Assembly (NCBI GenBank): GCA_044341565.1
Contig: JBIIRM010000001.1
Span: 1,159 to 65,158, forward strand
Direction of reading: 5' to 3'
Length of the DNA stretch: 64,000 nucleotides
Origin: Minisyncoccia bacterium
GTDB lineage: Bacteria > Patescibacteriota > Minisyncoccia > SW-4-49-11
A program made the translations under genes and the position numbers. This document shows, piece by piece, positions 10,776 through 37,698 of the stretch. The notes beneath the pieces are model-generated. The model did not search any database. It was not told the origin of the DNA and was given only the letters and a program-made list of their open reading frames with translations. Every line of letters begins with the position of its first letter. The stretch's first letter is position 1.

Positions 10776-10785
10776 GGGGGTGGCT
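10763..10785 (-). terminator. hairpin AGCCAC...GTGGCT spanning the convergent stop codons, followed on the minus strand by a T-run
   Basis: Stem GCCAC/GTGGC (10764-10768 / 10780-10784). The A-rich tract 10742-10762 on the + strand gives U-run after the hairpin for the minus-strand transcript. Confidence 0.5.
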
Positions 10786-11515
10786 AAGACACAATATTAG
10801 AAGAATGATCGAGCTGCGAGCAAATATTTAGATGATCTATTTCCCATCCCGAAAGGCAGGGGATATATGTTATATATCCTGCTGAGGGTGGTATACGGAG
10901 GTTTCTATCCTCGAGTATATCGAGGGTTTCAGGGTATTGTATATTTTTTATTTCAACATTAGCTAAGATATGAAAGGATGAGAGCGTAAATGAAGACTGA
11001 TTATTATCTGCTTCTACATATTGCCAGCGATACCTAGTTGTAAGTAGATCGGGCTCTATTGCGATCTTTGTATCAAGATAAGCTATGAGGAGATGTATGT
11101 CAAAGTTTGCTCCAGAGATATCTATAAATTTACCTGTTTCAAGTTTTTGTAAAAGATATTTTCTTTTCCTCGAGCTATGGAGATCAAGATATGCAAGTAA
11201 CAAATTCACACCTTGAATTTGTATATGCAGGCAGGGATTATTATCAATATTATCCCAATTTACATGAGGAGGATGAACTGCATATTGTAACTTTTCTTTA
11301 TAAGACAATACTACGCAGGAACGGGGTCGGTGAATGAAATGTGTAGCCACTCTATATATATTGTTAATACTCTCGATATCTCGATGAGTGGCATTGAGTA
11401 GAATGCAATATTGGGCGGGTAGGCTCTGTAAAAATTGCTTAAGATTAGTTCTCCGATAAATTTTATCCATATCAAGAATGATCAGGGAAAAAGTTTTAGG
11501 TCCAGAATCATACAT
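10784..11515 (-). CDS. hypothetical protein (243 aa), elevated GC
   Basis: Clean ORF with its own terminator. No motif I can place confidently. FSLIILDMD near the N-terminus loosely resembles a GT-A opening, but support is weak. Confidence 0.5.
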   Translation of the reverse strand: MYDSGPKTFSLIILDMDKIYRRTNLKQFLQSLPAQYCILLNATHRDIESINNIYRVATHFIHRPRSCVVLSYKEKLQYAVHPPHVNWDNIDNNPCLHIQIQGVNLLLAYLDLHSSRKRKYLLQKLETGKFIDISGANFDIHLLIAYLDTKIAIEPDLLTTRYRWQYVEADNNQSSFTLSSFHILANVEIKNIQYPETLDILEDRNLRIPPSAGYITYIPCLSGWEIDHLNICSQLDHSSNIVS

Positions 11516-11625
11516 GGGAAGGTACAGTAACTATATGTAGTATAGCATATTTTAAAGAAGTCCTCCTCCGTCCCTCTCATATAAATATGGGAGGGACACC
11601 TCCCCCAAGGGAGGACAGAGTACAA

Positions 11626-11651
11626 GAAAAAAGCCAGCTTCTAAACTGGCT
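11626..11651 (-). terminator. intrinsic terminator of 11641-12231 gene
   Basis: Stem AGCCAG/CTGGCT (11632-11637 / 11646-11651). On the minus strand it is followed by TTTTTTC (reverse complement of 11626-11631). Confidence 0.6.
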
Positions 11652-12231
11652 CAGAGGGGATATGTGAAATCCAATGGAAATGGCTAACTCGAAGGGGGGA
11701 TTGTATATTGGTATATCCTCGAAAATCAAATTGATTGATATCAAGATAGCATTCGAATCTATGCATTGTCATCTGTGTGGCAATGCCTGGATAGGGGTTA
11801 CTATAATCATCTCTAGGATTTGCTACCTGCAATTGTCTCCGTGCTATGATTTGAAAGGGTTGTATGGGTATTCTGAGTTCTTCATCAGCTATTGCCTCAA
11901 AGGCCTTCTTACAAGGGATTTCGTCTCGATGAAGCTGTTTGATAATGGAATAGGGTTTGAGTATATTGGATCTTAGGATTTTTCCATCTTTGAAACTATG
12001 GCCCTCTTCTCTCAATACAAGTAATTCATCAGGATGAGGGTTGAAATAGACAGATATAGCTGTTATTGCAATATGTCGAGTGAGAGTATTATTCTCACAA
12101 TTTACTGTACTATAGCCAGTATTGACTTCATCAATCAAATGAGTGGCAGTTTTTGTACCATTAATTCCCCACAAACTGAGGTCAATATCTGTCTCACGAA
12201 TCATCCCAAACAAATCTTGTAGGGCAAACAT
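11641..12231 (-). CDS. hypothetical protein (196 aa), elevated GC
   Basis: ORF plus its own terminator. No recognisable motifs. Confidence 0.5.
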   Translation of the reverse strand: MFALQDLFGMIRETDIDLSLWGINGTKTATHLIDEVNTGYSTVNCENNTLTRHIAITAISVYFNPHPDELLVLREEGHSFKDGKILRSNILKPYSIIKQLHRDEIPCKKAFEAIADEELRIPIQPFQIIARRQLQVANPRDDYSNPYPGIATQMTMHRFECYLDINQFDFRGYTNIQSPLRVSHFHWISHIPSEPV

Positions 12232-12282
12232 TTTTTCTGGTGCAAGGTACTATTATATTATATCATATTTGAGGTTGGGTAA

Positions 12283-12322
12283 AATAACAAAATGTCCCCT
12301 GACACCGATTCGGCGTCAGGGG
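12283..12322 (-). terminator. intrinsic terminator (CCCCTGAC/GTCAGGGG stem with inner CCG/CGG) followed by a U-rich tract
   Basis: 8+3 bp stem at 12296-12322. The reverse complement of 12283-12295 is ACATTTTGTTAT. Confidence 0.6.
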
Positions 12323-12542
12323 GGATGTCAGGAGATGGCTGTACTGAATGCCACCAAATCTCCCGAGGGGGAGAAAACTTCCACGAGGTGGAAGCGTCCC
12401 AGCTCAAGGGCTGGGACTGGCTGTGGGCCAGTGGGCCGAGGGGATGGTTTCCCTGGCTTCCCCTTGGTGGGGATGAAGTTGGGGAGTTTGACTCCCCCCT
12501 GATTACGAAGTTTCATGGTGTTTTCACCTTAGGTCAATTACA

Positions 12543-12571
12543 ATTATAGCACAAAACCACTAATTTGTCAA
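12543..12571 (-). promoter_or_regulatory. sigma70-type consensus promoter TTGACA-17-TATAAT
   Basis: Read directly as the reverse complement of 12543-12571. Confidence 0.6.
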
Positions 12572-12590
12572 TATCAGATAACATTAAATG

Positions 12591-12623
12591 TAAAAGAAAA
12601 AGACCTGTATCTAATACGGGTCA
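12591..12623 (-). terminator. probable terminator of the 77-aa ORF
   Basis: GACCTGTAT/ATACGGGTC imperfect stem at 12603-12623. The A-run 12591-12602 gives a U-run on the minus transcript. Confidence 0.4.
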
Positions 12624-12844
12624 AGTGGGAGGAATTGGTATCTTTGAGCATCGAGCTCATCATGCTGCTCCTTGGTAAGGGGGTATTCTCTTGGAGGGAG
12701 CTTTTCATTTAAAGGTCGCCTTGGATCCCAAGGGATTATGAAGTCCTTCTCAGGGTCAATATAGGCCTTGAGCCAAATGGAATAGGGAATACCATTCTTG
12801 GCAACCCATTCGGGGCTATACGGTTCGAGATTGGTGATGGTCAT
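12611..12844 (-). CDS. hypothetical small protein (77 aa), elevated GC
   Basis: ORF with a downstream hairpin and U-run. No motifs. Confidence 0.4.
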   Translation of the reverse strand: MTITNLEPYSPEWVAKNGIPYSIWLKAYIDPEKDFIIPWDPRRPLNEKLPPREYPLTKEQHDELDAQRYQFLPLDPY

Positions 12845-16852: not shown

Positions 16853-16873
16853 AAAAACCCCTCCTAAGAGGGG
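16853..16873. terminator. hairpin CCCCTC-CTAA-GAGGGG between convergent genes; stronger for the minus strand
   Basis: Stem 16858-16863 / 16868-16873. AAAAA at 16853-16857 gives a U-run for the minus transcript. Confidence 0.5.
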
Positions 16874-17445
16874 CTGGTGGTAAATTTTGCGATGAGCTTC
16901 TGAAATTGGTTGAGGCCATCGGCGAGGTCTCTCTCGAGATTTCCTGTTTGAGTCAAGACTAGTGAAGATATATCTTTGAAGGAATCTAGAGGTTCATTAT
17001 GCCGCAAGATTCGCTCCATAGGTATCCCTCGCTGTATCAAGATATCTTGTGGGACATCGAGAGTCACATATATCACCGGTGGGCGATATAGCTGTATTCT
17101 TTTGTCGAGAGATATTCTCTGGAGTATCATGGTAGAGAGGAATATCGTACCTTGCTCCCGTTGAGGCTCAATGGTTGGGAGATCAACACCATAGAGATGA
17201 TTTCCTGCCTCAAGCCTCTCCCAATTGGCCTCACCCGCCTTTTTCTCTAAATCATAATACTGCTCTCTACTGACAAAGGTGTATTCGAAAGATAGGGTGT
17301 CCTCTTTACGGTGACTATTATCGGGAGGGCGAGTGGTATAGAGCTTTAGGAATTTGGTCCGGGGAATATGCTCGAGAAGATGGCGGATGAGGGTTGTTTT
17401 CCCTGCGCCACTGGCTCCGACAAGGGTGATGAAAGGTGCGGTCAT
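16864..17445 (-). CDS. P-loop nucleoside monophosphate kinase, guanylate kinase-like
   Basis: GASGAGKTTL (P-loop), YTTRPP...EYTFVSREQYYDL and LEAGNHLYGVDL line up with Gmk TTRPxR...YxFVS and NxYGT regions. GC is elevated, about 45% by eye. Confidence 0.5.
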   Translation of the reverse strand: MTAPFITLVGASGAGKTTLIRHLLEHIPRTKFLKLYTTRPPDNSHRKEDTLSFEYTFVSREQYYDLEKKAGEANWERLEAGNHLYGVDLPTIEPQREQGTIFLSTMILQRISLDKRIQLYRPPVIYVTLDVPQDILIQRGIPMERILRHNEPLDSFKDISSLVLTQTGNLERDLADGLNQFQKLIAKFTTSPS

Positions 17446-36501: not shown

Positions 36502-36579
36502 TGGAGCCAATGGTGGGGCTCGAACCCACGACCTATGCGTTACGAATGCATTGCTCTACCAGAACTAAGCTACATTGGC
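36502..36579 (-). tRNA. tRNA-Thr (anticodon CGU), CCA encoded
   Basis: Minus-strand sequence is GCCAATG TA GCTT AGTTCTGGTA GAGC A ATGCA TTCGTAA CGCAT AGGTC GTGGG TTCGAGC CCCAC CATTGGC T CCA. Perfect 7-bp acceptor stem, T-loop TTCGAGC, anticodon loop TTCGTAA (U33, CGU, A37). Anticodon stem has one A-C mismatch. Confidence 0.8.
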
Positions 36580-36966: not shown

Positions 36967-37020
36967 TGTAAATAGCAGGACATCACAAAATATATTAACA
37001 GAGACTATACTATTTGTCAA

Positions 37021-37046
37021 AAGAAAAGACCCCGACATTGTCGAGG
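37021..37046 (-). terminator. intrinsic terminator of the high-GC gene
   Basis: On the minus strand: CCTCGA-CAATG-TCGGGG (with a G-U pair) followed by TCTTTTCTTTT. Confidence 0.55.
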
Positions 37047-37067
37047 CTGGGTGAGGTTAGTGTGTTA

Positions 37068-37631
37068 TCAGGAGTCGATGAGATCCTGCAGAAGCGGGGT
37101 CCATTGATCGAGCTCATAGGCCAGGAGGTTTGATGCCTGTGCATCAATGACGCCCATGATGGTGGGTGAATCAGATCGCCCGATGAGAGCGGGCTGAGTG
37201 GTGTAATCACCCCGCTTTCTCTCCCAGTAGTCAACCGTCTTGGTAGAAAGACCGCAACGGTTACCGAGGAAGATATTCTCGGCTGTGGGGGTCTCACCTC
37301 TGCGGGTTCGATTGACTCCACTGGAGTATCTCACCTCTTGAGCAGCAAGAGCTATCAAGGTCTTGCGAGCCTTGTCGTATTGACCGTAGTCAATACGAGC
37401 CAGTGCTCGTTCAAGCTGATAGAGCTCAGCACACCTGTCGCACCAAGGTGACACGGTGACGTAGAACGCCACCAACTGAATGGGAGGCTTTCCACTCAAC
37501 CCCTTCAATTTGAGGAGGCTCTTGCGAGCTTCCACCTTCAGCTCATTGAGCTGTTTCGCTGCGATAGCGGGTGAGAAAGCAGCGCGGAGGCGCCGACGGA
37601 TCTTGAGTGGGCTTTCGATGGTAGTAGCCAT
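37068..37631 (-). CDS. hypothetical protein (187 aa) with strongly atypical composition (about 55% GC); Arg-rich N-terminus
   Basis: Clean ORF, own terminator, sharp GC step at both ends (about 37040 and 37640). No family recognised. Confidence 0.5.
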   Translation of the reverse strand: MATTIESPLKIRRRLRAAFSPAIAAKQLNELKVEARKSLLKLKGLSGKPPIQLVAFYVTVSPWCDRCAELYQLERALARIDYGQYDKARKTLIALAAQEVRYSSGVNRTRRGETPTAENIFLGNRCGLSTKTVDYWERKRGDYTTQPALIGRSDSPTIMGVIDAQASNLLAYELDQWTPLLQDLIDS

Positions 37632-37698
37632 GGACTAAATGTTAATGAACAAAAATGATTATATCACAAAATAGGTAAAATGTCAATTTGTATAAACA

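Follow-up and report, generated by a model that had tools for sequence, protein, structure and literature searches.

The 64,000-nt stretch of contig JBIIRM010000001.1 from a Minisyncoccia bacterium (assembly GCA_044341565.1; hereafter the window) carries on its minus strand, at 12283-12571, a short GC-rich unit that runs from a consensus promoter to a terminator and is densely packed with hairpins. Comparison with relatives indicates that the body of this unit is very probably protein-coding, and that the unit represents an unannotated small-protein gene, predicted to encode 62 amino acids (aa) here and 33–115 aa in relatives, which would be new, restricted to one clade and unusually palindromic in its coding sequence. 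Our preferred reading, to which we assign a probability of roughly 0.55, is that of a monocistronic, strongly transcribed and clade-restricted small-protein gene whose hairpins act in cis on a compact, stable mRNA. An earlier sequence-only reading of the window had proposed a novel structured small RNA (sRNA), a dual-function RNA or a highly expressed small protein. The small protein is the proposal that the comparative data support, through an open frame, a bias of substitutions toward third codon positions, fewer non-synonymous than synonymous changes and triplet indels, whereas the novel structured sRNA fell to this clear coding signature and to a secondary structure that is weakly conserved, with most base pairs unshared. 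The unit is laid out as follows.

12543-12571, minus strand: sigma-70 promoter, with −35 TTGACA at 12571-12566, a 17-nt spacer, extended −10 TG at 12551-12550 and −10 TATAAT at 12548-12543.

12517-12536, minus strand: short 5′ untranslated region (UTR), with transcription predicted to start at about 12536.

12528-12517, minus strand: 5′-UTR hairpin GGUG-AAAA-CACC of 4 bp, which contains the region of the Shine-Dalgarno (SD)-like AAGGTG (12530-12525) and abuts the start codon.

12328-12516, minus strand: 62-aa open reading frame (ORF) MKLRNQGGVKLPNFIPTKGKPGKPSPRPTGPQPVPALELGRFHLVEVFSPSGDLVAFSTAIS, with a Pro-rich N-terminal part predicted to be disordered, then a predicted C-terminal beta-hairpin.

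12334-12516, minus strand: nine consecutive GC-rich hairpins within the coding sequence in the minimum free energy (MFE) fold, at 12516-12505, 12497-12481, 12473-12459, 12457-12435, 12430-12418, 12417-12396, 12395-12377, 12374-12359 and 12355-12334.

12281-12322, minus strand: intrinsic terminator, with a 12-bp stem and 3-nt loop (12322-12296) and a T-rich tail (12295-12281).

Homologues were reached through one weak protein match (P0001) and through homologues of a 196-aa gene downstream of the unit (P0002-4), which led to syntenic contigs, and a profile search then contributed P0005-P0010. This yielded nine distinct syntenic versions of the unit, all from close relatives within Candidatus Saccharibacteria and one of them from a metagenome-assembled genome (MAG) of an uncultured member of this group. 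Every version lies in the interval bounded by a Wzx-like flippase gene (Pfam Polysacc_synt) and, on the other side, a GT2 glycosyltransferase gene. Given that the flippases are highly similar to each other (non-synonymous divergence, dN, 0.02–0.06; synonymous divergence, dS, 0.24–0.85), the clade is shallow, and the family is confined to it. An exact look-up of the 62-aa product found no record in the protein collection, and a HMMER profile run against 1.84 billion representative proteins gave no further family member; a repetitive 2277-aa protein from that search was judged spurious. Promoter-pattern scans of metagenome and genome contigs returned, apart from the Saccharibacteria MAG already known, only strong promoters of a generic kind in unrelated bacteria, BLAST searches of phages and plasmids found nothing similar to the unit, and the literature on Saccharibacteria transcriptomes and sRNAs held nothing on this locus.

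The frame from the conserved start is open in all versions (62, 60, 113, 96, 86, 71, 37 and 33 codons, and 115 codons in L036 after deletion of one inserted C), and in the long homologues of 96–115 codons it is the sole open frame; in L009 its 113 codons contain only the terminal stop, while the other frames hold 1–6 stops. Indels within the ORF are all multiples of three (3, 6, 9, 12 or 15 nt), and those in the 5′ UTR are of 4–5 nt. Differences between the window and L001 are distributed 4/2/15 over the three codon positions, the changed codons comprising 12 synonymous and 6 non-synonymous ones, and across eight sequences the minimum numbers of substitutions at codon positions 1/2/3 are 18/22/47 (chi-square p = 2e-4), with a weaker signal in the C-terminal motif (25/28/39, p = 0.17). 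Nei-Gojobori (NG86) proportions of synonymous (pS ~0.45–0.6) and non-synonymous differences (pN ~0.12–0.22) differ accordingly (Fisher p = 8e-4), and L009, L012 and L032 share the amino-acid motifs ELPWEP and hhVxVxxPxGE despite strongly diverged DNA. These comparisons point to an ORF under purifying selection. Whether substitutions among homologues are synonymous or compensatory had been named as a check, and the values are pS ~0.5 against pN ~0.17, with 3 compensatory pairs in five helices.

A purely non-coding structured sRNA, with an ORF that is accidental because stop codons are rare in GC-rich sequence, is scarcely credible on these data. In its favour, an open frame of 62 codons is not rare at ~60% GC, other frames of the window version, one of them antisense, are also open, public gene callers picked an antisense ORF in four records (L003, L004, L006 and L007), and the fold z-score is −7.9. 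Such an origin is at odds with the three-base periodicity of substitutions, with pN well below pS, with in-ORF indels in multiples of three, with the sense frame alone being open in the 96–115-codon homologues and with amino-acid motifs kept on diverged DNA, and there is neither an Rfam match nor more than weak conservation of structure. The public calls place an ORF of 79 or 101 aa antisense to the unit (L003 2636-2941, L004 2702-2941, L006 627-866 and L007 793-1032). As a true gene this antisense ORF was ruled out, as it gains stops in longer homologues, which indicates that the four calls are probably mis-annotations of a GC-rich small gene.

The signals that delimit the message are conserved as well. 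The promoter, described earlier as TTGACA-17-TATAAT, is present at 12543-12571, scores 12/12 with TG present and is the top site of the 2 kb scanned; together with the AT-rich block 5′ of it, it is near-invariant across homologues in the nucleotide alignment. The SD-like AAGGTGA lies at 12530-12524 on the minus strand and the ATG at 12516 follows at 7 nt, also as first read, and the window, L003 and L032 all have AAGGTG 7 nt ahead of the start. The leader hairpin is retained in relatives with other sequence, as AGUG/CACU in L001 and as CAUGG/CCAUG, covering the AUG, in L009, L033 and L036. The hairpin and U-run that had been proposed to double as an intrinsic terminator proved to be a 12-bp stem (12322-12296) with 9 G-C pairs, followed by ACATTTTGTTATTTT and the T-rich tail. 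A GC-rich hairpin with a T-run, as in Rho-independent terminators, occurs at the same place in 8 of the 9 homologues with differing stem sequences; the contig of L032 stops at the T-run, and the terminator tail is not fully visible there. With promoter and terminator both conserved, the unit is predicted to be an independent transcription unit. It is single-copy in the window, where copies elsewhere had been suggested as a check, and occupies one constant syntenic site in relatives. A repeat of the repetitive extragenic palindrome (REP), bacterial interspersed mosaic element (BIME) or miniature inverted-repeat transposable element (MITE) type, or another mobile small element, would be marked by multiple dispersed copies and was rejected on this single copy in 64 kb.

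The predicted protein has a conserved N-terminal part of ~37 residues that is rich in Pro, Lys and Gly (MKLREPEGxQLPxFIxSKGKPGQGRPSPRPRPEPVPA and variants), with MKLREPxxLPxFIPxKGKPG..PSPRPxxPxPVPA as the consensus across versions; the 62-aa product of the window includes the stretches LPNFIPTK and FHLVEVFSPSGDLVAFSTAIS. Its AlphaFold2 (AF2) model has coil at residues 1–40 and strands at 41–48 and 54–61, with a mean predicted local distance difference test score (pLDDT) of 68 and values in the mid-70s for the C-terminal beta-hairpin that the two strands form. L001 and L033-35 have lost this C-terminal module, their ORF ending directly after PVPA; in L036 the module is frameshifted, and L037 has a divergent tail in its place. 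The module is dispensable, having been deleted, frameshifted or replaced in four of the nine homologues. In L036 (3001-3474) the beta-hairpin motif is thrown out of frame by a single inserted base (AAACCCAGA vs. AATCCAGA), and the frameshifted ORF runs through the terminator to 157 aa; given that the same product is found on three contigs, the insertion is probably a real mutation and not an assembly error.

Searches of the small protein against Pfam, NCBIfam, PHROGs, PADLOC and PDB sequences gave no credible match. Saccharibacteria live as obligate epibionts with few known host-interaction factors, and the genomic context of the unit suggests, as speculation, a clade-specific envelope or host-interaction function for the peptide. 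The short cationic Pro-rich stretch, with its PRP-type spacing, resembles the insect peptides drosocin, apidaecin and oncocin, a likeness that we take as a lead only: the pentamer SPRPT occurs both in KGKPGKPSPRPTGPQPVP and in drosocin GKPRPYSPRPTSHPRPIRV. In contrast to proline-rich antimicrobial peptides, the product has no Pfam, NCBIfam or PDB-sequence homology and neither a signal nor a pro-peptide, and it is bacterial and by default cytoplasmic. Membership of that group was rejected on homology and signal, and a low-complexity likeness of this kind is expected by chance.

The composition and folding of the unit set it apart from the rest of the window. GC content is 0.58–0.65 in 100-nt windows over the unit, and its 150-nt peak, 0.633, is unmatched elsewhere in the window (mean 0.338, standard deviation 0.057), bearing out the estimate of ~60% by eye against an AT-rich background. 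GC content at third codon positions (GC3) is 0.62 in the ORF, compared to 0.237 ± 0.08 in the genome (50 long ORFs). The predicted transcript (12536-12283, minus strand) has an RNA MFE of −119.3 kcal/mol, compared to −81.3 ± 4.8 kcal/mol for dinucleotide shuffles (z = −7.94), and none of 200 shuffles was as stable. Its MFE structure consists of 11 hairpins, among which each of the eight hairpins in the sequence-only reading was found within 1–2 nt, 12441-12453 being the inner portion of 12435-12457; the additional ones are 12528-12517, 12516-12505 and 12355-12334. The plus strand folds at −121 kcal/mol (z = −4.6), similarly stable in absolute energy, indicating that the hairpins are palindromes at the DNA level and not strand-specific.

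The hairpins also exceed what the encoded protein requires. In a synonymous-codon shuffle, in which codons were permuted among positions while protein and codon usage were kept, the native window ORF was 29 kcal/mol more stable than the shuffled sequences (z = −6.7; 0/100). The corresponding z-scores of the homologues are −5.1 (L036), −3.6 (L012), −3.4 (L032), −3.3 (L037), −2.7 (L003), −1.4 (L033), −1.3 (L009) and +0.2 (L001), that is, −1.3 to −5.1 in seven of the eight. As a control, 30 equal-length segments of ordinary window genes gave −0.17 ± 1.1, with a minimum of −2.4; the sequence-only reading was right to call so many hairpins unusual in a coding sequence. Stems form where Pro, Ser and Leu codons (CCN, UCC, CUC) oppose Gly, Glu and Arg codons (GGN, GAG, AGA), in facing codon pairs such as EG..LP, P..G, GR..SP, TG..PV and SP.GE, with complementary wobble bases. 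The wobble bases are chosen for perfect pairing of the arms, past the demands of amino-acid sequence and codon usage.

According to our preferred reading, the message would be bracketed by hairpins, one at the 5′ end that abuts or covers the AUG and the 12-bp terminator hairpin that would close the 3′ end, and the body between them would leave almost no A/U-rich single-stranded RNA. An mRNA bracketed in this way and with so little A/U-rich single-stranded sequence is likely to be compact, long-lived and ribonuclease-resistant. It would withstand 5′-exonucleolytic, 3′-exonucleolytic and endonucleolytic decay while being translated slowly, and such a stable message would suit a constitutively abundant small protein. 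The hairpins would work in cis on the message and not as a conserved trans-acting RNA fold.

Conservation of the structure itself is limited. For the conserved 5′ half, RNAalifold gave −8.7 kcal/mol with an unfavourable covariation term of +1.8. With MFE pairs projected onto a codon alignment made blind to structure, the window had 23 of its 55 pairs in common with its nearest relative and 0–11 with the others. Hairpin loops recur at codon columns 10, 17, 29, 36/39, 42–45, 108–113 and 117–123, often in a shifted register or with another partner; the VEV codons, for example, form the 3′ arm of a stem in the window, and in L032 they make up the 5′ arm of a stem of 11 bp. Pairing reaches 89.7% in five N-terminal helices, compared to 44–58% with a slid partner, and 3 of their pairs are compensatory; the shuffle control for helix pairing is borderline, the observed value having been reached in 14–19 of 500 cases. 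The hairpins appear to be labile, perfect palindromes at the DNA level and not an RNA fold under purifying selection.

Several observations weigh against our preferred reading. The cis-stabilising role is one that we infer from the sequence, and transcription and translation are likewise deduced from sequence and its evolution. Window and L003 differ with a dN/dS near 0.7. Leaders of the L009/L033/L036 type and those of L012 and L037 are without the SD-like AAGGTG, and L001 starts with GTG; the genes neighbouring the unit are also without an SD. Only 26% of the pairs changed in a homologue stay paired, G.U pairs make up 4% of all pairs (26/591), and the hairpin excess is equal on the antisense strand. 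Moreover, synonymous divergence of the unit is about that of the flippase gene, and synonymous sites turn over near the neutral rate. Given the few G.U pairs and the equal antisense excess, a DNA-level or mutational origin of the hairpins fits as well as selection on RNA.

Such an origin is at the core of an alternative that we regard as possible, though we advance it tentatively, in which the same small-protein gene carries hairpins that are functionless by-products of template-switch (quasipalindrome) mutation. Near-palindromes would be abundant in GC-rich DNA coding for Pro and Gly, heavy transcription would promote intrastrand switching that copies one arm onto the other and so perfects it, and a disordered protein would tolerate the resulting multi-nucleotide changes. 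The almost pure Watson-Crick stems and the strand-symmetric excess argue for this origin, as do a dS that is not reduced, the appearance of the same VEV codons in opposite arms, and pairs that turn over and shift register: UCUCCC/GGGAGA in the window corresponds to CUCCCC/GGGGAG in L003, with five changes clustered in 12 nt. Template switching is described in two reports as creating and maintaining hairpins and altering coding sequence (PMC8794818; PMC8604942), and perfect Watson-Crick stems, clustered multi-nucleotide differences and register shifts between close relatives, and coding effects are points of likeness with the present case. The cases treated there are RNA genes or yeast genes at large, in contrast to the dense array in one small bacterial ORF described here. 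Template switching leaves unexplained a GC3 of ~0.6 in a genome of GC3 0.24, as well as the fact that the neighbouring GC-rich 77-aa ORF is free of any such excess (z = +0.45). Pairs with double changes stay paired in 42% of cases, compared to 25–38% in slid controls, a difference that template switching also predicts. No single switch event could be reconstructed from the nine sequences, nor could individual differences be firmly assigned to one by eye.

That the hairpin array is itself under selection, with tuned wobbles, fixed codon columns and an RNA-level role alongside the conserved Pro-rich peptide, strikes us as rather unlikely. If so, the array could confer extreme message stability, could be a protein-binding or scaffold RNA, or could be an RNA delivered at the epibiont-host interface, and the codes for RNA structure and peptide would overlap, each shaping the other.

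We also consider unlikely, and somewhat more so, a dual-function RNA whose transcript encodes the peptide and in addition serves as a structured RNA, either a protein-binding hairpin array or a regulator. Abundant stable RNAs typically have a perfect promoter and a strong terminator, and the same promoter pattern fronts a tmRNA-like start in L024 and, less surely, one like that of RNase P RNA in L021, both recognized by eye only. The hairpin excess is family-wide, hairpin positions recur with weak covariation, high GC3 is maintained, and the predicted transcript persists both in L036, with a frameshift in the C-terminal coding part, and in L037, where a divergent tail replaces that part. These points are countered by the poor RNAalifold result, which leaves no conserved global fold, by the few pairs common to homologues, and by scarce G.U pairs with no strand asymmetry. 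Furthermore, the short forms (L001 and L033-35) drop most hairpins and keep the peptide, with a z-score of +0.2 in L001, and no conserved single-stranded seed region is evident. In known dual-function sRNAs (SgrS/SgrT, RNAIII/delta-haemolysin and SR1/SR1P), ORF and regulatory structure are largely separate and base-pairing regions are conserved. The unit resembles them in its highly structured, terminator-bounded and probably abundant transcript of ~250 nt with a small ORF, and differs in that its hairpins lie within the ORF and turn over between relatives, with neither seed region nor target evident.

Known structured RNAs were not found at the unit. The Rfam 15 gathering scan of the whole window detected only a tRNA-Thr (36505-36579), a permissive scan (E ≤ 10) of 12150-12700 gave one chance match to a long non-coding RNA (E = 3.2) over the promoter, and ARAGORN found no tmRNA at the unit. 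The sequence-only reading had likewise found no match to tmRNA, signal recognition particle (SRP) RNA, RNase P RNA, 5S or rRNA fragments. The unit is similar to 6S RNA, tmRNA, SRP RNA and RNase P RNA in combining high GC content with a consensus promoter in a genome that is otherwise AT-rich; it differs from them in having no covariance-model match at E ≤ 10, in a fold that is neither rod-like nor specific to a family, and in its coding signal.

The unit is closer to the bacterial small ORFs (sORFs) that are missed or mis-called, as a short ORF, equipped with a promoter and a terminator of its own, that is absent from public records or wrongly annotated there, and detectable only via comparative coding signatures. 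It departs from these in its extreme GC3 (0.62 vs. 0.24) and in a hairpin excess (z = −6.7) unseen in the 30 control segments. When an AT-rich genome of the candidate phyla radiation (CPR) has a GC-rich stretch full of hairpins after a perfect promoter, that stretch is not automatically a non-coding RNA; here, comparison points to a translated small ORF, which annotation pipelines miss or place on the wrong strand. The gene would represent a further orphan family, of Pro-rich small proteins that are probably abundant, located beside envelope-polysaccharide genes in an island that recombines and is specific to the clade. Its coding sequence offers a compact natural case of dense in-gene hairpins, which selection on the mRNA may maintain or template-switch mutation may generate.

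The unit is flanked by the following features.

12256-12268, minus strand: conserved ATATGATATAATA box of extended −10 type, the putative own promoter of the downstream 196-aa gene.

11641-12231, minus strand: downstream 196-aa orphan gene of family C, the usual right-hand neighbour of the unit.

12611-12844, minus strand: optional 77-aa Pro/Trp-rich orphan ORF of family A, upstream of the unit.

The arrangement of promoter, short ORF, terminator hairpin and structural gene has the anatomy of a leader peptide with attenuator, in which stalling at Pro runs would govern terminator read-through into the 196-aa gene, and the stop codon lies 5 nt from the terminator stem in both the window and L003. 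This reading is nevertheless very improbable. A conserved extended −10 box stands between terminator and downstream gene, with an invariant block TATGATATA.TA...CCTTG at that box in the nucleotide alignment. Since the downstream gene would thus have a promoter of its own, the unit is probably a separate transcription unit. The distance from stop codon to terminator stem varies from 5 to ~26 nt across homologues, the downstream gene is inconstant (family D and not family C lies 3′ of the unit in L036), and no conserved alternative anti-terminator pairing was seen. We rejected attenuation on the −10 box, the variable spacing and the inconstant downstream gene.

The family C gene has no match in Pfam, NCBIfam, PHROGs or PADLOC, and its AF2 model is unusable (pLDDT 49). 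The family A ORF has its own near-consensus promoter (12894-12866), a terminator-like hairpin (12622-12602) and a GC3 of 0.53, and shows no hairpin excess (z = +0.45); it was found in L001, L009, L036 and L037 and is absent from L003, L006, L012 and L033. Only orphan families (A, 77 aa; C, ~196 aa; D, ~243 aa; E, ~280 aa) occupy the island at 10784-12231 on the minus strand and the related loci between flippase and GT2 genes. Close relatives differ in which of these four families they have, and none of the four gave a credible match against Pfam, NCBIfam, PHROGs, PADLOC or PDB sequences.

Between the window and L036, dS is 0.97 for the unit and 0.33 for the flippase, and between L033 and L036 it is 0.15 and 0.63, respectively. 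Given this discordance between the phylogenies of unit and flippase and the variable gene content, the region appears to recombine among relatives, which suggests cassette exchange in the island. The proposal that the unit is carried on a foreign islet was upheld in part, by the variable island, by the discordance with the flippase and by a GC3 far above that of the genome; its foreign origin was not, as protein profile, phage and plasmid searches found no external donor or mobile-element homologue.

Other GC-rich stretches were observed beyond the island. A second GC island of the window (0.58; 37015-37653), near the tRNA-Thr at 36505-36579, contains a 187-aa ORF (37068-37631, minus strand) with a GC3 of 0.60, no Pfam, NCBIfam, PADLOC or credible Rfam match and a marginal PHROG match (E = 0.01); hairpins are in excess in one 189-nt segment (z = −3.1). 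A 193-aa guanylate-kinase-like P-loop gene (16867-17445, minus strand) with elevated GC3 (0.49) ranks third among the long ORFs as a GC outlier. Finally, an unrelated AT-rich metagenome contig (L013, 5470-6290) has a GC-rich stretch of ~800 nt behind a consensus promoter between truB and infB, which contains no convincing ORF by eye and may be a structured RNA.

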